Shown here: piece by piece, positions 8,588-39,240 of the stretch
How positions within the stretch are numbered: the stretch's first letter is position 1
Layout of the letters: every line of letters starts with the position of its first letter
NCBI GenBank assembly: GCA_030837225.1
Contig: JAUPKX010000007.1
Coordinates: 65,182 to 129,181, forward strand
Direction: 5' to 3'
Length of the DNA stretch: 64,000 nt
DNA from: Patescibacteria group bacterium
GTDB taxonomy: Bacteria > Patescibacteriota > Minisyncoccia > Phycocordibacterales > Phycocordibacteraceae
Program-made: the position numbers and the translations under genes
The notes under the pieces: model-generated
What the model was told of the DNA's origin: nothing
What the model saw: the letters and a program-made list of their open reading frames with translations, nothing else
The model's database searches: none

Positions 8588-8842
8588 CTAAGCCAAAAAA
8601 CTCTTTTCAACCTCCTCCTTATTGATGCCGTTTACCACACGAGCGTAGCCCATGCCCTGCAGAATTATATTGGCTCTCTCGGCGCGCCCACCACTTGCGC
8701 AATAGACGACGATACTGGCATCCTTTGGAATCTGCGCTAGGGCACTCGCCACAAAGTCCGTAACAGGTATGTTTATTGCTCCATGCACATGGTCAACAGC
8801 AAATTCCTCTTGGGTACGGACATCGATTAAGATTTTATTCAT
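8588..8842 (-). CDS. single-domain rhodanese-like sulfurtransferase
   Basis: Active-site loop VVYCASGGRAERA (C-x2-G-x-R). Confidence 0.8.
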   Translation of the reverse strand: MNKILIDVRTQEEFAVDHVHGAINIPVTDFVASALAQIPKDASIVVYCASGGRAERANIILQGMGYARVVNGINKEEVEKSFLA

Positions 8843-9004
8843 TTGTGATTTTGACCTCTAACAGTTACGGGTCAATTCTGACACGTGCCGGTAAGTTTTT
8901 GGGTCACCCAATCTTGTTGCACTGATAAGACGGGATTGGCACCAAAACTACAATTAGCTATTTATTTCTTAGGTAGAACCAACCATTCGCACTTGGTGTA
9001 GCTA

Positions 9005-10652: not shown

Positions 10653-12803
10653 ATGAAAAAAGGAAAAACGTCTCGTTCTGAGGAAAAGAAAGGGTTTTCA
10701 CAAATAATCAAAAGAAGCGGCGCGCATGTTCCTTTCAAACGAGAGAAGATAGTTGCGGCTCTTACGAAGGCCGGGAATGCTACAAGCGAATACAATGCAG
10801 CTGATGCAGAGCATCTAACAGATTCTATTATCGCCCGAGCGGAAACACTTTCCTGCGAGTTTCCATCGGTTGAAGAGATACAAGACATTGCTGAACAGGT
10901 TCTGATGGAGGCATCGCATCACCAGACTGCAAAGGCATACATTGTGTACCGTAAACAGCATGCCGACATGCGAGCGCTTGCCGCGGCAGCTTCTGTTGAT
11001 CTCGTCGACGGGTACCTTGATCGACTTGATTGGCAGGTGAAGGAGAACAGCAACATGGACTACTCCCTTCAGGGACTGAACAATTACATCTTTTCTGAAG
11101 TGAGTAAGACGTACTGGCTCACTAAAGTGTACCCACAGGAAGTAAAGGTTGCACACGAGTCAGGAGATTTGCACCTACACGATCTCGGTACCCTCTCGGT
11201 ATATTGCGTCGGATGGGATCTGATGGATCTTCTATTAACGGGATTCCGTGGTGTTCCCGGAAAAATAGAGTCTGCGGCTCCGAAACATTTCCGTGCTGCC
11301 TTAGGGCAGGTCGTGAATTTCATGTATACGCTGCAGGGCGAGGCGGCGGGTGCAATCGCGTTCTCTAACTTCGACACTCTCCTCGCTCCCTTTATTCGAT
11401 ATGACAATCTCTCATACGAAGAGGTGAAGCAGGCGATGCAAGAATTCGTATTCAACATGAATGTGCCCACGCGTGTTGGCTTTCAAACGCCATTCTCAAA
11501 TATCACGCTCGATCTATCGCCATCTGCTAACTTCAAGGACTTGCCAGTCATACGAGGCGGCAAACCACAGGAAGAAACCTATGGAGACTTCCAAGTAGAA
11601 ATGGACACCATGAACCGTGCCTTCTTTGAAATTATGGCTGAGGGCGACGCTGCGGGACGTGTATTCACCTTCCCTATTCCTACCGTGAACGTAACCAAGG
11701 ACTTCGATTGGGATAACCAAAACCTGAATGGGCTCTGGGAAATAACCGCAAAATATGGCATTCCGTACTTCAGTAACTTCGTGAACTCCGACATGAAGCC
11801 TGAAGACACGCGGAGTATGTGCTGCCGTTTGCGTCTTGATCTTGAGGAGCTAGATCGCAGAGGGGGTGGTCTCTTCGGTGCTAACGCCTTAACAGGATCG
11901 GTTGGTGTTGTAACTATTAACCTTCCGCGTCTCGGCTATATTGCAAAGAGTACAGAAGAGTTCCAGACACTTCTTGCTCAGCAAATGGACATTGCCAAGC
12001 AAAGTCTTGAGATAAAGCGAAAAGCCCTTGAGCGCCTTACGCGAGCGAACCTCTATCCGTATACAAAGTTCTATCTCCGCAACATCGCGGAAATGCACGG
12101 CGAGTACTGGAAGAATCACTTCTCCACCATTGGCCTTGTTGGAATGAACGAAGCGGCGAAGAACCTCTTGGGAGAAGACATTGGCACAGAAACGGGACAT
12201 GCATTTGCGGAAGAAACACTCCTCTTCATGCGTGAGCGACTCGTTGCATATCAAAAAGACACCGGAAACCTCTACAACCTTGAGGCGACTCCTGCAGAAG
12301 GAACCGCATATCGTCTTGCCCTGAAAGATAAGAAACAGTATCCAGATATTATTGTCGCGAACGAGACGGAATACGCAAAGGGTGCAGAGCCCTTCTATAC
12401 CAACTCCTCACATCTCCCCGTTAATTACACGGATGACATTATCGAAACTCTAGAACTTCAAGATTCGCTTCAAACCAAGTACACCGGCGGGACGGTTATT
12501 CATGTGTTTCTTGGTGAACGTATTCATGATGCACGTGCGGTGCCGCAATTGGTGCGCAAGATTTGCCAGCAATTCAAGCTCCCGTACTTCACACTCACCC
12601 CAACATTCAGCGTCTGTCCGTCACATGGTTACGTGTCAGGCGAACACCCGCTCTGCCCTACCTGTAAAAGCGAGTGCGAAGTATATTCGCGCATCGTCGG
12701 GTACCTCCGTCCTGTGTCGCAGTGGAATGCGGGCAAGCAGTCAGAATTCTCAGTCAGAGAAACCTACGTAACCGAGCCTTCTGTTGTTCCAACGCTCGTA
12801 TGA
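10653..12803 (+). CDS. nrdD: anaerobic ribonucleoside-triphosphate reductase (class III RNR)
   Basis: N-terminal ATP-cone, C-terminal Zn ribbon (CPSHG...CPTCKSEC) and glycyl-radical motif (SRIVGYLRPVSQWNAGKQSEF). Confidence 0.9.
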   Translation: MKKGKTSRSEEKKGFSQIIKRSGAHVPFKREKIVAALTKAGNATSEYNAADAEHLTDSIIARAETLSCEFPSVEEIQDIAEQVLMEASHHQTAKAYIVYRKQHADMRALAAAASVDLVDGYLDRLDWQVKENSNMDYSLQGLNNYIFSEVSKTYWLTKVYPQEVKVAHESGDLHLHDLGTLSVYCVGWDLMDLLLTGFRGVPGKIESAAPKHFRAALGQVVNFMYTLQGEAAGAIAFSNFDTLLAPFIRYDNLSYEEVKQAMQEFVFNMNVPTRVGFQTPFSNITLDLSPSANFKDLPVIRGGKPQEETYGDFQVEMDTMNRAFFEIMAEGDAAGRVFTFPIPTVNVTKDFDWDNQNLNGLWEITAKYGIPYFSNFVNSDMKPEDTRSMCCRLRLDLEELDRRGGGLFGANALTGSVGVVTINLPRLGYIAKSTEEFQTLLAQQMDIAKQSLEIKRKALERLTRANLYPYTKFYLRNIAEMHGEYWKNHFSTIGLVGMNEAAKNLLGEDIGTETGHAFAEETLLFMRERLVAYQKDTGNLYNLEATPAEGTAYRLALKDKKQYPDIIVANETEYAKGAEPFYTNSSHLPVNYTDDIIETLELQDSLQTKYTGGTVIHVFLGERIHDARAVPQLVRKICQQFKLPYFTLTPTFSVCPSHGYVSGEHPLCPTCKSECEVYSRIVGYLRPVSQWNAGKQSEFSVRETYVTEPSVVPTLV

Positions 12804-13486
12804 TCTTCGGGGGCTTCGAGAAGTGCACGCTCGTTGACTACCCGGGCAAGGTAGCCTGCATGGTGTATACCATTGGGTGCAATTTCCGCTGTCCCTACTG
12901 CCATAACCCAGAACTCGTAGATGAAACGGTCGAAACAACCTACAGCGAGGCTGCCATTCTTGATTTCCTCGATACCAGGAAGGGCCTACTCGATGGTGTA
13001 GTTATCACGGGTGGCGAACCAACGATGCATGAAGAATTGCCCGCGTTCGCTCGGCGCGTGAAAGAGAAGGGGTTTCTGGTAAAACTCGATACAAACGGTA
13101 CTAATCCGGAAATGCTTCGGCGAACTATCGATGAAGGCTTGGTTGACTACGTCGCAATGGACATAAAGTCACCGCTTGATTCTTACAGCCAGACAGTTGC
13201 GCGGGCGGTTGATGTGGAAGCGATACGCGAAAGTATTAGTATATTGCTTGCCTCCTCTATTGAGTACGAGTTCCGGACGACAATCGTGAAGGGTCTGTTG
13301 TCGCCAGAAGATCTAAAACGTATCGGCGAGGCAATACAGGGAGCCAAGTCCTACTACCTTCAGAAATTCGTGCCGACAAAGATCCTCAACCCTCAATTCA
13401 AGCGGAAAGTAACGTATACAGACGAAGAGTTTGTAGAGTTTCAGAAAATAATGCACGAGTATGTTGAAACCTGCAAAATACGCTGA
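12800..13486 (+). CDS. nrdG: anaerobic RNR activating protein (radical SAM)
   Basis: CNFRCPYCHN radical-SAM cluster motif. ATGA start/stop overlap with nrdD; the ORF-track start at 12674 is upstream of the likely Met. Confidence 0.85.
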   Translation: MIFGGFEKCTLVDYPGKVACMVYTIGCNFRCPYCHNPELVDETVETTYSEAAILDFLDTRKGLLDGVVITGGEPTMHEELPAFARRVKEKGFLVKLDTNGTNPEMLRRTIDEGLVDYVAMDIKSPLDSYSQTVARAVDVEAIRESISILLASSIEYEFRTTIVKGLLSPEDLKRIGEAIQGAKSYYLQKFVPTKILNPQFKRKVTYTDEEFVEFQKIMHEYVETCKIR

Positions 13487-14675
13487 ACTATATCTGGACT
13501 ATGCTGCTGGGACACCAGTGGCTCCTGAAATACTTGAAGCCATGCTTCCATATTTCGGAAACGAGTACCATAACCCCTCATCAATGCACGCAGGCGGGCG
13601 TAAGGCTCATAGAGTACTCGACGAAGCTAGAGCAGCCATTGCGGGAATGATTAATGCAGAGAGCGACGAGATCATCTTTACTGGTTCCGGTACCGAATCG
13701 GCTAACCTGGCAATTATTGGAGCCGCACGAGCTGCTAAAGCAAAAGGCAACCACGTCATCATATCAAGCGTGGAGCACAAGGCGGTGCTTGAAGCTGCTA
13801 AAAGTCTCACCAAGGAGGGGTTCGAAGTAACGTGTCTTCCGGTTGACCGGTATGGAATGATTGACCCCGGTACTCTTATCTCACACCTACGTGACGAAAC
13901 AATCCTTGTTTCTGTCATCTACGCAAACAATGAAATCGGTACAGTCGTCCCCATACAAGAACTCTCTGCAAAGATTGCTGATGCCTGCATCAACCGAAAG
14001 AGGCCCGTCTTTCATACCGATGCATGCCAAGCGATCTCGTATCTAGATGTCGATGTGCGGGCTCTTGGAGTTGACCTCATGACCTTCAACAGCGCGAAAG
14101 TGGGCGGCCCCACAGGGGTGGCAGCACTCTACAAGCGGCGCGATGTTCGCCTTTCCCCACTTATGTACGGTGGCGAGCAAGAACAATTGTTGCGGCCCGG
14201 AACGGAGGCCCTGCCTCTTCTGAAAGGATTCGCGCACGCACTCAAAATCGCAAGGAGTCTTCGGGCAAAGGAAGTGGATCGATTGCTGGAACTTCGCCAG
14301 TACTTCATTCACGAGCTAGAGAATCGTATACCAGGACTTATAGTGAACGGCCATCCAACTGCTGTCTTGCCTAACGTAGTACACGTAACTATTCCGGGAA
14401 TTGAAGGAGAGGCAATGCTTCTCATGCTCGACGAGCATGGCATTGCAGTATCAACGGGGTCCGCCTGTTCTGCATTCGACCTCCGACCTTCGCATGTCTT
14501 GTCTGCGATAGGCCAGGAGAGCGATCTCATTCATGGAAGTATTCGATTCTCCTTTGGGCGCGACACAGACAAGGAGAAGCTTGAGTATGTACTCCACGTA
14601 TTCCCCGCTATCGTAGCGCGCCTACGATCGATATCGTCAGTAACAACCCATGCATATGAAAAACAACCCCGGTGA
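13461..14675 (+). CDS. cysteine desulfurase (class V aminotransferase, NifS/IscS-like)
   Basis: LDYAAGTPV N-terminus, PLP-lysine region (FNSAKVGGP), active-site loop STGSACS. Confidence 0.85.
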   Translation: MLKPAKYAELYLDYAAGTPVAPEILEAMLPYFGNEYHNPSSMHAGGRKAHRVLDEARAAIAGMINAESDEIIFTGSGTESANLAIIGAARAAKAKGNHVIISSVEHKAVLEAAKSLTKEGFEVTCLPVDRYGMIDPGTLISHLRDETILVSVIYANNEIGTVVPIQELSAKIADACINRKRPVFHTDACQAISYLDVDVRALGVDLMTFNSAKVGGPTGVAALYKRRDVRLSPLMYGGEQEQLLRPGTEALPLLKGFAHALKIARSLRAKEVDRLLELRQYFIHELENRIPGLIVNGHPTAVLPNVVHVTIPGIEGEAMLLMLDEHGIAVSTGSACSAFDLRPSHVLSAIGQESDLIHGSIRFSFGRDTDKEKLEYVLHVFPAIVARLRSISSVTTHAYEKQPR

Positions 14676-15084
14676 CGTCGGCAACTGGCTTTACAGCGAG
14701 ACTGTGCGCGACCATTTCTTCGCGCCCAGAAATCTTTTGCTTGATGAAGCAACATATGAAGCCGATGGGATAGGAATTGTCGGAAGCCCCGCCTGTGGTG
14801 ACATGATGGCAGTTTGGATAAGGGTGGATCCAAAGGCAGAGCGTATAACCGAGTGCAAGTGGCGGACATTTGGTTGCGCCTCCGCTATCGCCTCAACTTC
14901 GATGATGTCAGTTATGGTGACCGAGGAAGGTGGCATGCTGCTTACCCGAGCAAAAAAACTTACTCCTGAAGCAATTATTGAACGCCTGGATGGGCTTCCA
15001 GACAGGAAATACCACTGTTCTGTGTTAGGACACCTCGCCATTCGTGAAGCAATCAAAGACTATGAACAAAATCATGGAGGATAA
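14650..15084 (+). CDS. Fe-S cluster scaffold protein, IscU/NifU N-terminal domain
   Basis: Three conserved Cys (GSPACGD, FGCASAI, YHCSVL). Confidence 0.85.
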   Translation: MHMKNNPGDVGNWLYSETVRDHFFAPRNLLLDEATYEADGIGIVGSPACGDMMAVWIRVDPKAERITECKWRTFGCASAIASTSMMSVMVTEEGGMLLTRAKKLTPEAIIERLDGLPDRKYHCSVLGHLAIREAIKDYEQNHGG

Positions 15085-15766
15085 GCTTGTATACGTAGTC
15101 ACAGAGAACAAGCGGGAGAATCACGATACGGTGACGCTTTTGCTTTCGTGCGAAAAAGGGTCTGTTCCGCCATTCGTTCCAGGTCAATTCATTAGCATCT
15201 ATTTCCCCGAGCTCAACACGCCCGAGGGTAAGTCGTACAGCATTTCGGGTCCTCCGGGCAAGGAAACAATGGAAATAACAATCAAGGGAATCGGCGAATT
15301 CTCTAACCGCCTTTGTGCCATGAAGCGAGGCGACAGAATTATCGGATCTTCCCCGTATGGTTTCTTTTATAGCGAACAGGATGATACTGGCTTGGTCATG
15401 ATTGCAGGCGGTATTGGCATAACACCGTTCCGCGGCATGATAGCTCATACTCTGGAACACGAGCCTGGACGAAGCATCAGCCTATTCCATAGCGCTAGAA
15501 CGGCTGCTGATCTGATTTTTGATAAAGAGCTAGCGAATGTATCTGGATTAGCAACGCATTATTTCGTTACAAGGGACACTGTTTCTTCCCCTCTTATTAC
15601 TCCAAGAAGAATGAAGCCTGAAGATATTGTTCGGAATTGCAGGCCTGAGCTCGCCGAATTTTTTATCTGCGGATCCATACCTTTCGTACGAGATCTATGG
15701 CATGGCCTCAAGAGCCACGGTATTGCCGAAGATAGAATTTACACTGAGGCTTTCTTTTCACACTAA
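15044..15766 (+). CDS. FAD/NAD(P)-binding oxidoreductase (ferredoxin-NADP reductase / PyrK-like electron-transfer flavoprotein)
   Basis: FAD-binding R-x-Y-S motif region (GKSYSISG), NAD-binding GGIGITP glycine-rich loop. Confidence 0.7.
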   Translation: MKQSKTMNKIMEDKLVYVVTENKRENHDTVTLLLSCEKGSVPPFVPGQFISIYFPELNTPEGKSYSISGPPGKETMEITIKGIGEFSNRLCAMKRGDRIIGSSPYGFFYSEQDDTGLVMIAGGIGITPFRGMIAHTLEHEPGRSISLFHSARTAADLIFDKELANVSGLATHYFVTRDTVSSPLITPRRMKPEDIVRNCRPELAEFFICGSIPFVRDLWHGLKSHGIAEDRIYTEAFFSH

Positions 15767-15847
15767 TGTCTTCTAGATTGCATCAATAGAACACTGTCGA
15801 TCGTGGATGCGCTTCGCTCTTATCTGCAGGCAAACCGTGTAATCGTG

Positions 15848-16167
15848 TTGCGGGGGCCGGAATCGAACCGGCGTCTGGAGGTTCTTTTACACCTACTGTT
15901 TCCAGAAGGAATGGACTATACCATGATCCTGAACCAGGATCCTCCCATTATAGTCTCTGAACCTTTCCCGGAAAATTCCGAGACTTGGCTGCTGATTGCC
16001 GAATCTTCTTGTTTTTCAAGCATTCACGCTCATCCTTTCGGATCACGTTGTAGCACAAGAAGCTCTAACGGTATTCCAGCAATTTAGAGAGTTTTTCCAC
16101 TACCCGTTACCGGATAGGGTCACGTTGTTCACATGAGCCTCCCGAGGTACCTCTCCTCTACCCCGCT
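15848..16167 (-). tRNA. tRNA(CAT), likely initiator-type Met, interrupted by a group I intron (exons 16133..16167 and 15848..15883)
   Basis: Joined exons give AGCGGGGTAGAGGAGAGGTACCTCGGGAGGCTCAT|AACCTCCAGACGCCGGTTCGATTCCGGCCCCCGCAA. This folds as a canonical cloverleaf: 7-bp acceptor with unpaired A1/A72, U8, D-stem GAGG/CCTC with A11:U24, anticodon stem GGAGG/CCTCC, loop CTCATAA, T-arm GCCGG-TTCGATT-CCGGC. No CCA is encoded. Confidence 0.75.
15884..16132 (-). mobile_element. 249-nt ORF-less group I self-splicing intron in the tRNA(CAT) anticodon loop, between the anticodon and position 37
   Basis: Contains the conserved group I core elements R (GTTCAGAGACTATAA) and S (ATGGTATAGTCC), giving P7 GACTA/TAGTC. 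U at the 5' splice site, terminal G at the 3' splice site, and a candidate P1 guide (GTGACCC) pairing with the exon GGCTCAT. Confidence 0.7.
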
Positions 16168-16295
16168 ATATACTGCTTCATTGAAGAAGCTCAAAAAAGC
16201 ATACCACTTTACTAAAAAGAGTACAATTCTGAGTAGATATAAGGTTATTGCATGGGGTTCATAAACCTCGAATTTTATGATGCTATTCTTGATAT

Positions 16296-16664
16296 ATGCC
16301 TCACAAGGACCCCGAGCGCGCAAAGGAGTATCACGCGAAGTATATGAAAGAAGTGTGGTATCCGAAAAACAAGGAGAAGCACCTTGCTTACGTGCGTCGT
16401 AACAAGCAGCGAGTTACAGCATTCATCGCAGCGTACAAAAAAGATCGCTCATGCACAGACTGTGGGTTCTCGGGGAAGGAATTCCCTTTTGTACTTGATT
16501 TTGACCACCTCGATGGAGGTCTCTCGAAGAAATTTACAATCGGCAGCTGGTCACACTCAGTACTCAGCATTGAAGCTATTGAAAAAGAAATTGAGAAGTG
16601 CGAACTTGTGTGCGCAAACTGTCACCGCATACGAACCTTCTCTAAGAAGGTTGTGGAGGGCTAA
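16296..16664 (+). CDS. free-standing HNH-family (homing-type) endonuclease
   Basis: C-x2-C ... FDHLDGG ... ELVCANCHRIRT (His-Asn-His beta-beta-alpha-metal motif with zinc-finger cysteines). Lower GC than the flanks. 129 nt from the intron-containing tRNA. Confidence 0.75.
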   Translation: MPHKDPERAKEYHAKYMKEVWYPKNKEKHLAYVRRNKQRVTAFIAAYKKDRSCTDCGFSGKEFPFVLDFDHLDGGLSKKFTIGSWSHSVLSIEAIEKEIEKCELVCANCHRIRTFSKKVVEG

Positions 16665-17254
16665 ATCTCCCCATGCTCACGCATCACCATCTCATACATA
16701 GCTATGGTGCGGTGCGCGAGGTGCTCAGTTAACTCGAACGAGGAACCACTATGGGCAATCTCGTTACGTACCTTATGGGCGTCCCACGCGAACTGGAGCG
16801 TCGTAAACTTCGCAGGATTAACGGCCTTGAGCTTCTCCCCGACACCCTGGCCCGGATACCCAAGCTGAGACAACAGATCATCTAGCATAATATCCGCTTC
16901 GATAATCGCCTGGCGCCAGTCGCTCTCGTGCGGACGTTCAACAAGCTCCCGAACGTGCTCCCATCGAGAATGATCTCGTTCCACCTCCGCATGTGCAGAG
17001 TGTTCGGTGGCGTACTTCGCTGATTCTTCCCGCTTCGTCTGATGTAAACGAATGGTGGAGTTAATAAACACCGCGAGGAGCGCAATCGTTACAACAATTG
17101 AAAGCCCCGTTGCTATGAGCCAGATCTGACTCGCAAGAGCGAGCAGACTGGTCTGTAAGGAGAAGCCTCCCGGATTCGAGACGAGCTCGTAGAGGAGCCT
17201 AAAGAAATACTCGACGTTAAGAAAATGAACGGTAGGTTCCGAAGTTGTTCCCAT
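16661..17254 (-). CDS. membrane-anchored protein with C-terminal HEPN-like R-x4-H motif (DUF4145-like); function unknown
   Basis: Long N-terminal hydrophobic hairpin (LLALASQIWLIATGLSIVVTIALLAVFI) followed by a helical domain containing WDAHKVRNEIAHSG. Stop codons overlap convergently with the HNH gene. Confidence 0.45.
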   Translation of the reverse strand: MGTTSEPTVHFLNVEYFFRLLYELVSNPGGFSLQTSLLALASQIWLIATGLSIVVTIALLAVFINSTIRLHQTKREESAKYATEHSAHAEVERDHSRWEHVRELVERPHESDWRQAIIEADIMLDDLLSQLGYPGQGVGEKLKAVNPAKFTTLQFAWDAHKVRNEIAHSGSSFELTEHLAHRTIAMYEMVMREHGEI

Positions 17255-17262
17255 CCCTTGAA

Positions 17263-18690
17263 TTATAGCGTCTCACCGGTCACGAGCGCACCAATTTTAA
17301 ACAATAGGTCGTCAGCTCCGAGCGGCGCGGTAAAGTGGATACCAGTTGGGAGCAGAACACCGTCGCGCTCAACGTTCCCCATAGGTACTGAAATTGCCGG
17401 CATACCAGTGAGGTTCGCAGTAACGGTAAAAATATCTTCGAGATACATGGACACGGGATCTGACTTCTCGCCGAACTTGAATGCGGGTGAAGGAGTTGTC
17501 GGAAACGCGATAACATCACAGCTCTCAAAAGCAGCATCGTATTCTGCACGCAAAACGCCGCGTGCCTGATCAGCCTTCCGGTAGTAGGCATCGATGTACC
17601 CAGAGGAAAGCACGAATGTGCCAAGCAAAATGCGGCGTTTCGGTTCTTCACCAAAACCTTCTGCGCGTGTCTTAACATAGTCGGCAAGCAGTGAATCTCC
17701 TCGCTCAGCCAGTCCGTACCGGACTCCATCATAGCGCGCAAGGTTTACTGAAGCCTCAGCAGGCTGAATAATGTAATACACCGGCAAGGCAAAGACACTG
17801 GTCGGTAGTGATATGGGAACTACCGTATGGCCAAGAGACTCAAGTGACTTAAGTGTTGCATTCAGATTTTCTTTCACATCCTCATCGATACCGTCCTCAA
17901 GAAGGTGGTGCGGTACACCTATACGGAAGGATTTCGGGATTTCAAAGGCGGGATATGTGCCTGGAGCAAACGTTGTTGCGTCTAGTGGATCCTGACCACG
18001 CACAGCATCGAATAGTATCTTTGCATCTTCGGGCGTCTTAGCTATCTCACCCATCTGGTCTAGCGAGGAACCGAGGGCAATGAGGCCCGAACGAGATACG
18101 GCACCGTATGTGGGCTTGAACCCGACAACCCCGGTATGCGAGGCTGGCTGACGACAGGATCCTCCCGTATCCGTACCATAAGCCCCAAGCACCATATGTG
18201 CAGCAACAGCAACGGCAGATCCTCCTGAAGAACCTCCAGGCACTCGGGTTATGTCATGCGGATTCCTGGAAGGTCCGAAAGCTGAATTCTCCGTGGATGC
18301 TCCCATACCGAATTCATCCATATTTGCGCGTCCTATGAAAAGCGCTCCCTGTTCCTTCAGCTTCTTAACTCCGGTTGCGTCATATGTAGCACGATAATTT
18401 GCGAGTATCTTCGATGCTGCACTCGCAATCCTGCCTTCAATGAGGATGTTGTCCTTCATCGCAAGCGGGATACCGCAAAGGAGCGGTGCCTCCCCGCCAT
18501 CGATGCGCTTCTGCGCGGATTCAATTGCAACATCATCCGCCTCAAAGAGCTCGAGGAATGCATTTAGCTCCGGATTCCTCTCCTTCGCTGCAGTTGCACA
18601 CGCATCCCAAAGCTCGCGGACCGTAAACTCCTTGCTACGCAGGCCACGTGCTGCTTCAGTTATAGAAAGCTCGTTCAAGGACTTAGTCAT
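17263..18690 (-). CDS. gatA: Glu-tRNA(Gln)/Asp-tRNA(Asn) amidotransferase subunit A
   Basis: Amidase signature GGSSGGSAVAVAA, Ser-cisSer-Lys triad context, 475 aa. Confidence 0.95.
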   Translation of the reverse strand: MTKSLNELSITEAARGLRSKEFTVRELWDACATAAKERNPELNAFLELFEADDVAIESAQKRIDGGEAPLLCGIPLAMKDNILIEGRIASAASKILANYRATYDATGVKKLKEQGALFIGRANMDEFGMGASTENSAFGPSRNPHDITRVPGGSSGGSAVAVAAHMVLGAYGTDTGGSCRQPASHTGVVGFKPTYGAVSRSGLIALGSSLDQMGEIAKTPEDAKILFDAVRGQDPLDATTFAPGTYPAFEIPKSFRIGVPHHLLEDGIDEDVKENLNATLKSLESLGHTVVPISLPTSVFALPVYYIIQPAEASVNLARYDGVRYGLAERGDSLLADYVKTRAEGFGEEPKRRILLGTFVLSSGYIDAYYRKADQARGVLRAEYDAAFESCDVIAFPTTPSPAFKFGEKSDPVSMYLEDIFTVTANLTGMPAISVPMGNVERDGVLLPTGIHFTAPLGADDLLFKIGALVTGETL

Positions 18691-18985
18691 GGTTGATGAT
18701 CTTCTTCACTGAAAGACTGTTCCCCTCCTTCGCAGGAAACTGCTCGACAATTCGCTGTGTCCACGTGCCCGACTCATAGGGAGCCTCATCTGCTCGCAGC
18801 ACGTTCCGAACCACAGACAGGTTCCGCCCGCTCTCCGGAAGCGTAAGCTCGTCGAGCTTCCCGACATACGCGAGAATGCTGTCGAATTCAGTCGCGAATC
18901 TTGTAAGATCAGCGTCATCGACATCAACACGGGCAAGCGTCGCTAAGCGCTTCACGTCCTTTGTAGTGGCCTTCATGTCACTCAT
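18683..18985 (-). CDS. gatC: Glu-tRNA(Gln) amidotransferase subunit C
   Basis: About 100 aa helical protein directly upstream of and overlapping gatA. The start was chosen at an internal Met (MSDMK). Confidence 0.8.
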   Translation of the reverse strand: MSDMKATTKDVKRLATLARVDVDDADLTRFATEFDSILAYVGKLDELTLPESGRNLSVVRNVLRADEAPYESGTWTQRIVEQFPAKEGNSLSVKKIINHD

Positions 18986-19001
18986 AATACTAGGCAATCT
19001 A

Positions 19002-21029
<2,028 letters not shown>

Positions 21030-39163: not shown

Positions 39164-39240
39164 GCACCCTTAGCTCAGTTGGTTAGAGCACGGAGCTTAT
39201 ACCTCCGCGGTCCTTGGTTCGAGTCCAAGAGGGTGCACCA
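39164..39240 (+). tRNA. tRNA-Ile with rare anticodon TAT (UAU; decodes AUA), CCA encoded
   Basis: GCACCCTTAGCTCAGTTGGTTAGAGCACGGAGCTTATACCTCCGCGGTCCTTGGTTCGAGTCCAAGAGGGTGCACCA. Anticodon stem CGGAG/CTCCG, loop CTTATAC. Confidence 0.8.

Follow-up and report, generated by a model that had tools for sequence, protein, structure and literature searches.

A conserved membrane-anchored HEPN-domain protein encoded after gatA in Patescibacteria, and the intron-associated HNH gene beside it

Introduction

Does a small membrane protein with a ribonuclease-like motif, whose gene meets an endonuclease gene tail to tail, belong to a mobile defence system or to the cell's own core machinery? The question is raised by a 64,000-nucleotide stretch of DNA from a Patescibacteria group bacterium (contig JAUPKX010000007.1 of assembly GCA_030837225.1, positions 65,182 to 129,181), referred to here in its entirety as the window. 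The gene in question, designated gene X, lies on the reverse strand and encodes a 197-amino-acid protein with an R-x4-H motif of the HEPN type near its C-terminus; the convergent neighbour encodes an HNH endonuclease. A sequence-only reading of the window had suggested that the two might together make up a small island, for defence or addiction, carried along with an intron locus, with mere coincidence as the fallback. The analysis presented here indicates that X is a core gene of Patescibacteria, that its C-terminal domain belongs to the HEPN superfamily, and that the HNH gene is associated with a separate mobile intron. The protein itself is probably a membrane-tethered endoribonuclease with a housekeeping or regulatory role. 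Coordinates of all features are collected in Table 1.

Conservation and genomic context of gene X

The open reading frame (ORF) is present as originally described, with residues 157-170 of its product reading WDAHKVRNEIAHSG. Sequence searching recovered more than 1000 homologs at E<=1e-3, and an exhaustive profile search recovered 2707 cluster representatives (clustering at 50% identity), of which 692 scored E<=1e-30; relatives of X are encoded in at least 501 species-level GTDB genomes. All named homologs come from Patescibacteria or Paceibacterota and are labelled hypothetical, and none carries a precomputed Pfam domain. The closest relative, at a locus designated L007, shares 93% protein identity with X against a regional DNA identity of 78%, and the pairwise ratio of nonsynonymous to synonymous substitution rates (dN/dS) is 0.03: X is under strong purifying selection. 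Within the window X is single copy, with no second copy or paralog found. Two alignments were used to follow individual residues, namely A1, consisting of 33 X homologs, and A2, a diverse alignment of the C-terminal domain with 39 members. The residues that are invariant in A1 include W113, R114, E119, D121, W157, H160, R163, N164, H168, and G170.

In a synteny survey of 80 loci, each from a different GTDB species and with X identities of 42-93%, X was found immediately 3' of gatA in 79, in the order gatC-gatA-X, and in those 79 loci ligA lies further upstream wherever the contig extends far enough. In the window, only 8 nt separate the gatA stop codon from the X start codon. An intact tRNA-Met(CAT) gene on the same strand occurs within ~40-480 nt 3' of X in 47 loci, and an intron-split copy is found in 13 more. 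X closes the conserved ligA-gatC-gatA-X block as its final protein-coding gene, with tRNA-Met(CAT) usually next on the same strand. Promoter and terminator scans around the operon returned sites no more numerous than in shuffled sequence.

Some members of the family are considerably longer than the window protein. For example, the 607-amino-acid relative P0265, whose gene starts 2 nt after gatA, consists of an N-terminal transmembrane helix, SH3_3 repeats (E 6.6e-11), a second transmembrane helix, and the same HEPN domain. Short and long forms share the position after gatA and are therefore positional orthologs. Taken as a whole, X is a real, strongly conserved, vertically inherited core gene of Patescibacteria (the Paceibacteria/Parcubacteria lineage).

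The HEPN-fold domain and its motif

The C-terminal domain of X (residues 86-197) is modelled by AlphaFold at a predicted local distance difference test score (pLDDT) of 91.9, as an up-down bundle of four helices made of two alpha-hairpins. The helices span residues ~86-106, 110-131, 153-172, and 177-193, in canonical rather than permuted order, and the stretch between helices 2 and 3 (residues 132-152) forms an insert, a loop in which the GEKLK block (138-144) makes up a short helix. Foldseek places 1wty, an MNT-associated HEPN protein, as the best match of the domain at a probability of 0.84-0.92, though with an E-value that is not significant. Other structural neighbours include the KNTase C-domain, YutE, the sacsin HEPN domain, HepT, ST0689, HI0074, and Csx1, with MtlR, GlnE, DrrA, LsoA, AbiA, and HepS ranked lower; Csm6 and the HepN/HepT toxins are likewise among them. 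The topology agrees with the definition of HEPN domains given by Anantharaman et al. 2013 (PMC3710099): helices 2 and 3 are separated by an insert, helix 3 ends with the Rx4-6H motif, and helix 2 carries conserved acidic residues, though not in the typical Ex3[KR] spacing.

Profile matches point in the same direction. When Pfam was scanned with each of the 39 members of A2, the five families matching most members all belonged to the HEPN clan (CL0291): HEPN_Swt1 (PF18731) matched 17 members (best E 2.8e-4), DUF4145 (PF13643) and RiboL-PSP-HEPN four each (best E 4.7e-3 and 5.1e-3, respectively), and Cthe_2314-HEPN and pEK499_p136-HEPN three each (best E 2.9e-3 and 0.021). The alignments are colinear across the whole domain, covering positions 25-110 of 115 in the Swt1 profile and 8-87 of 88 in the DUF4145 profile. 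That HEPN-clan families hold the top five places supports membership of the superfamily as judged from sequence, though of no single family within it. In an example DUF4145 alignment the score was 13.5 bits against a gathering threshold of 23.1 bits, and the Pfam scan of the window protein itself returned no DUF4145 match. The earlier description of the domain as HEPN-type stands, on topology, on the five leading Pfam families, and on an intact R-N-x3-H motif; membership of DUF4145 itself is not supported. The C-terminal domain of X is a HEPN-superfamily domain whose family has no model in current libraries, and it is not DUF4145 by Pfam criteria.

Taken by itself, R-x4-H says little about X: the protein is rich in Arg and His, and the motif arises in 50% of shuffled versions, no more than chance would give. 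The extended form RNxxxH, with a polar Asn following the Arg, arises in 1.7%. What makes the motif meaningful is that it is conserved and correctly placed in the fold, toward the end of helix 3. R163, N164, and H168 are invariant in all 33 members of A1, and RNxxxH is retained in 269 of 270 X relatives. Two acidic residues in helix 2, E119 and D121 of the EADIML block, are also invariant in A1 and at least 90% conserved in A2, and their position fits the description of HEPN domains in the survey cited above (PMC3710099).

The membrane anchor

The N-terminus of X had been described as a long hydrophobic hairpin. Only one stretch of the protein, at approximately residues 36-68, gives hydropathy windows above 1.8; the stretch is continuous, and AlphaFold models it within one long helix comprising residues 31-81 (pLDDT 91-96). 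A hairpin of two transmembrane segments is not supported by this arrangement, and X instead looks like a single-pass, membrane-anchored protein. The preceding amphipathic helix (residues 14-26) contains charged residues and is not a transmembrane segment. It is conserved among close homologs, and F11, N13, Y16, F18, and Y22 are conserved in A1.

Because the anchor is followed by R69, K74, and R75, all of them basic, the C-terminus of X is predicted to be cytoplasmic. The positive-inside rule and the architecture of the long orthologs together favor an N-out/C-in topology: with one transmembrane helix on either side of the SH3_3 repeats, the HEPN domain of the long form would have to face the cytoplasm.

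Proposed function and alternative explanations

Judged by analogy, X is probably a membrane-tethered, metal-independent HEPN endoribonuclease with a housekeeping or regulatory role, co-expressed with GatCA. HEPN ribonucleases of known structure are dimers in which the Rx4-6H motifs are juxtaposed. The window protein would consist of a short N-terminal segment, one membrane helix, and the cytoplasmic HEPN-fold domain; two such domains would dimerize, as in characterized HEPN ribonucleases, and thereby pair their RNxxxH motifs. Cleavage would, by the same analogy, leave 2',3'-cyclic phosphate ends. The substrate may be cellular RNA, and it is tempting to guess from the genomic context that it includes tRNA or the transcript of the operon and tRNA-Met itself. 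The role of the enzyme would be tied to co-expression with GatCA. In the long orthologs, the short N-terminus appears to be exchanged for a first transmembrane helix and SH3b repeats on the outside, a composition that hints at a receptor-like design, and the membrane-spanning part may couple an outside signal to dimerization and activity. Characterized HEPN ribonucleases, as covered in the superfamily survey, are metal-independent endoribonucleases (PMC3710099).

Several observations weigh against this proposal. With respect to the fold, scanning the X sequence alone produced nothing relevant in Pfam, NCBIfam, or PADLOC, and no model in the three libraries reaches threshold for the X family. 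The displayed HEPN alignments score 13-17 bits and every match lies below the gathering cut-offs of 23-28 bits; the Foldseek E-values are not significant; and searches of the PDB by sequence profile, with both full-length and C-domain alignments, returned chance matches only, at transmembrane segments or at E>0.1. With respect to catalysis, the helix-2 acidic residue of X (E119-A-D-I-M123) is not in the Ex3[KR] form that the survey gives as typical (PMC3710099). One relative of the 270, P0131 (206 amino acids), has lost RNxxxH, its sequence reading ...ANKAHDVRVVMREN..., but keeps the rest of the domain, and may represent a copy that has been inactivated. Certain HEPN domains serve for binding and not for catalysis, and the ribonuclease role is a prediction for every member of the X family. 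Finally, the link to gatCA could reflect mere co-expression, because ligA is also linked without a known functional tie.

The first alternative holds that X is an effector of a conflict system, either a signal-gated suicide or abortive-infection ribonuclease or an addiction toxin, whose membrane or extracellular part would sense attack and unleash indiscriminate RNA cleavage. HEPN domains occur mostly in defence and toxin systems, according to the survey (PMC3710099), and the structural neighbours of X include the HepN/HepT toxins, Csm6, Csx1, AbiA, LsoA, and HepS. The SH3b ectodomains of the long orthologs are sensor-like, and two of the related loci, L005 and L006, have genes of defence type (SMODS/AGS_C, recombinases) at a distance of a few kb, beyond the tRNA. 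Against these points stands the behaviour of the gene itself, which is fixed after gatA in 79 of 80 species with a dN/dS of 0.03, is single copy in the window, and has no PADLOC match; position, dN/dS, and the absence of a PADLOC match likewise leave the defence or addiction island of the sequence-only reading unsupported. No small MNT- or antitoxin-like gene adjoins X, the neighbours being gatA and the tRNA, and variable, island-like DNA starts only beyond the tRNA gene. A role as effector is accordingly unlikely.

A second alternative, comparably unlikely, is that the HEPN domain is non-catalytic and serves as a membrane scaffold or ligand-binding partner that tethers, for example, GatCA, the transamidosome, or tRNA, with the conserved R, N, and H residues binding nucleotide or RNA. 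Non-catalytic HEPN families have lost Rx4-6H, as noted in the survey (PMC3710099), whereas the X family almost universally keeps the motif, and with it the polar Asn and the acidic residues of helix 2, and a scaffold role is less likely for that reason. Pfam scans revealed no similarity to GatB or YqeY domains. On the same result, X was set aside as a substitute for GatB; gatB is absent from the window, which covers part of the genome.

A third possibility, put forward by analogy and regarded as rather improbable, is that X is a receptor-like, membrane-spanning HEPN ribonuclease within the core gene set of episymbiotic Patescibacteria and acts as a housekeeping or host-sensing counterpart of Ire1 and RNase L, with no part in defence. 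The outside part, which would be the SH3b cell-wall-binding repeats in long orthologs or the short conserved peptide in the window form, would sense contact with a host or cell wall and promote HEPN dimerization and specific RNA cleavage, plausibly of GatCA-linked tRNAs.

The HNH gene and the group I intron in tRNA-Met

The neighbour of X is a true HNH endonuclease, as had been supposed: its 122-amino-acid product matches PHROG HNH endonuclease families at E 8.4e-24 (PHROG 2255) and 3.1e-23, the Pfam HNH match reaching just E 0.069. The HNH ORF ends with TAA at 16662-16664, and X ends with TAG, the reverse complement of 16661-16663; the 4-nt, tail-to-tail overlap of the stops is confirmed from the sequence. 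The gene lies in ~490 nt of inserted sequence (16171-16660) that separates the stop codon of X from the tRNA gene. The tRNA-Met(CAT) gene is itself interrupted by a 249-nt group I intron directly after the anticodon, the boundaries of which were set by alignment to the uninterrupted tRNA of L007. The fold of the exons, once joined in silico, is that of a canonical tRNA-Met(CAT). It has an A1xA72 mismatch atop the acceptor stem, a feature associated with bacterial initiator tRNAs. The split gene as a whole (15847-16167, reverse strand) is missed by ARAGORN unless the exons are joined. A 94-amino-acid ORF at 15803-16087 on the forward strand, lying antisense to both the intron and the 3' exon of the tRNA, has no Pfam match and is almost certainly spurious.

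L007 represents the empty site: an intact tRNA-Met follows 33 nt after the stop codon of X, and both the HNH gene and the intron are missing. HNH homologs were found in eight of the 80 loci, plus L005 and L006, in every case next to the 3' end of X and convergent with it; loci with a free-standing HNH gene include L005, L023, L031, L037, L045, L053, L059, L064, and L075. Among loci with at least 900 nt of sequence downstream of X, all six with HNH also have the intron, and the 63 without HNH comprise five with an intron and 58 with none (Fisher's exact p = 3.9e-6); L037 is an additional locus in which the two co-occur. Because of this co-occurrence, the HNH gene is assigned to a separate mobile intron, and its contact with X is incidental. 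Sporadic presence at one genomic site, with HNH in eight of 80 loci and an empty site in L007, is also the pattern of an HNH homing endonuclease.

The gene lies just outside an intron without an ORF of its own and is divergent from the tRNA. The arrangement resembles the collaborative (trans) homing described in phages (reviewed in PMC3984707), the likeness being that HNH gene and intron are both sporadic and co-occur. The difference is one of setting: the reviewed cases are from phages, and the present one is a chromosomal tRNA-Met on a patescibacterial contig among core genes. At six further loci (L008, L021, L042, L047, L050, and L078), the same group I intron is found in tRNA-Met just 3' of X without an HNH gene; such introns may have been left after loss of the endonuclease or may have spread in trans.

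The idea of a functional pairing between X and the convergent HNH gene, as a small island for defence or addiction that moves with the intron, draws on the 4-nt overlap and on the recurrence of the convergent layout in L005, L006, and eight surveyed loci, but is very improbable, given that X occurs with no HNH gene in 72 of 80 loci, that L007, with X at 93% identity, lacks both HNH and intron, that HNH tracks the intron (six of six loci, plus L037) and not X, that the distance between the X and HNH gene ends appears to vary between loci, as judged from the ends of tblastn matches, and that HNH keeps 70-78% identity at loci where X has just 42-54%, a difference to be expected of separate histories. 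Coincidence, the fallback of the sequence-only reading, is the correct account of the adjacency.

Variable DNA beyond the tRNA is seen in two related loci. In L005 (6500-10606) and L006 (6700-10606), the sequence is variable and island-like, with serine recombinases, a SMODS/AGS_C gene of the CBASS (cyclic-oligonucleotide-based antiphage signalling system) type in L006, and a ParB-methylase in L005. A LOOT RNA (Rfam RF03000, 73.1 bits) is found near a recombinase gene in the variable region of L005, at 8774-8895. The boundary of an integration hotspot seems to lie at the tRNA-Met gene, a circumstance that could mislead toward the view that X resides in a defence island.

Features of the window

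Table 1. Position, strand, and basis of assignment of the features at the gene X locus, in window coordinates
Feature	Position	Strand	Basis
Gene X, 197-aa membrane-anchored HEPN-domain protein	16661..17254	-	ORF, ATG start; stop codon 16661-16663
N-terminal amphipathic helix of X, residues 14-26 (VEYFFRLLYELVS)	17177..17215	-	AlphaFold secondary structure
Single hydrophobic membrane anchor of X, ~residues 36-68 (predicted)	17051..17149	-	Hydropathy and AlphaFold
HEPN-fold domain of X, predicted cytoplasmic, residues 86-197	16664..16999	-	AlphaFold model
Conserved acidic E119-A-D121, helix 2 (EADIML block)	16892..16900	-	Alignments A1 and A2
R163-N-E-I-A-H168, Rx4H signature with polar Asn after Arg	16751..16768	-	C-terminal half/end of helix 3
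gatA, amidase subunit of Glu/Asp-tRNA amidotransferase	17263..18690	-	ORF; PF01425 Amidase on orthologous genes
gatC, overlaps gatA start	18683..18997	-	ORF; PF02686 GatC in orthologous loci; gene order
ligA, NAD-dependent DNA ligase, first gene of ligA-gatC-gatA-X	19002..21020	-	ORF; DNA-ligase Pfam domains in orthologous loci; gene order
Free-standing HNH endonuclease gene, 122 aa, outside the X system	16296..16664	+	PHROG HNH families
tRNA-Met(CAT) 5' exon	16133..16167	-	Window 16170-16133 100% identical to L007 6629-6666
Group I intron, 249 nt, directly after the CAT anticodon	15884..16132	-	Rfam RF00028, 68.7 bits, E 2.6e-15
tRNA-Met(CAT) 3' exon	15847..15883	-	Window 15883-15841 97.7% identical to L007 6667-6708

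Beyond the tRNA, at 10653-15766 on the forward strand, lie ORFs resembling an anaerobic ribonucleotide reductase and its activase, a NifS-like cysteine desulfurase, a NifU-like protein, and a flavin reductase-like protein. Judged by eye from their translations, they look like ordinary metabolic genes and not a defence island. The remaining genes of the window are ordinary core genes, including those for SecY, FtsH, RecG, type IV pilus proteins, and a beta-CASP ribonuclease of the metallo-beta-lactamase family. ARAGORN also reports a tRNA-Ile with the anticodon TAT at 39164-39240 on the forward strand. Such a tRNA is unusual in bacteria, where AUA is normally decoded by a lysidine-modified CAT tRNA.

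Comparison with known systems

Within the HEPN superfamily (CL0291), the nearest families are HEPN_Swt1 and DUF4145, with which X shares the four-helix bundle, the insert between helices 2 and 3, and weak but colinear alignments. It differs from them in its sub-cut-off scores, in the absence of the Ex3[KR] form, in its location in a housekeeping operon, and in its patescibacterial distribution, the last as judged from record names and sources.

A transmembrane HEPN protein is not without precedent. DUF4145-type HEPN domains fused to "TM and SH3" in Firmicutes are already catalogued in Table 1 of Anantharaman et al. 2013 (PMC3710099), and, compared by that description, they follow the same domain logic as the long X orthologs. 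The window form of X has no SH3 part, and the family lies outside DUF4145 by Pfam thresholds. The portions of the same paper used here mention neither the synteny with gatCA nor the patescibacterial distribution. A literature search turned up no publication that connects HEPN with a core gene of Patescibacteria.

Other systems offer more distant parallels. The KEN domain of Ire1 and RNase L is a circularly permuted HEPN domain, as given in the survey (PMC3710099), and a functional likeness to X is possible by analogy, in that a sensor controls, through the membrane or a ligand, the dimerization of a HEPN ribonuclease active as a dimer. X is not a member of this group: it has 197 amino acids with no kinase or pseudokinase in the Pfam scan, and its helices are in canonical order. 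The HepT/HepN toxins of HEPN-MNT systems (SO_3166, PDB 5yep; 7ae2; 8xdj) share 8-9% sequence identity with X, which differs from them in being membrane-anchored, in residing in a core operon, and in having no adjoining MNT gene in the window or in orthologous loci. Finally, RNase Y of the Firmicutes is a membrane-anchored housekeeping ribonuclease with a single N-terminal transmembrane segment and KH and HD domains. It may be a functional analogue of X, with catalytic domains that are unrelated (KH and HD versus HEPN). Among viral protein families, X gave a single weak PHROG match of no known function, confined to the transmembrane region.

Significance

The X family is large, missing from profile libraries, and fixed after gatCA in Patescibacteria, and it appears to be undescribed in the literature searched, although a membrane-bound HEPN protein is not in itself new. 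The lead toward a defence island has been removed as false, and the HNH neighbour is explained as part of a group I intron and free-standing HNH arrangement at a chromosomal tRNA-Met, a clean natural example, from outside phages, of what resembles collaborative homing. Prokaryotic HEPN proteins are known mostly as toxins and defence effectors, yet the X family combines the full catalytic signature with the behaviour of a core gene. If the predicted ribonuclease activity is true, X would be a candidate membrane-tethered enzyme of RNA processing or regulation in a phylum whose RNA metabolism and host interactions are poorly understood, and the SH3b-bearing orthologs make the putative signal input testable.

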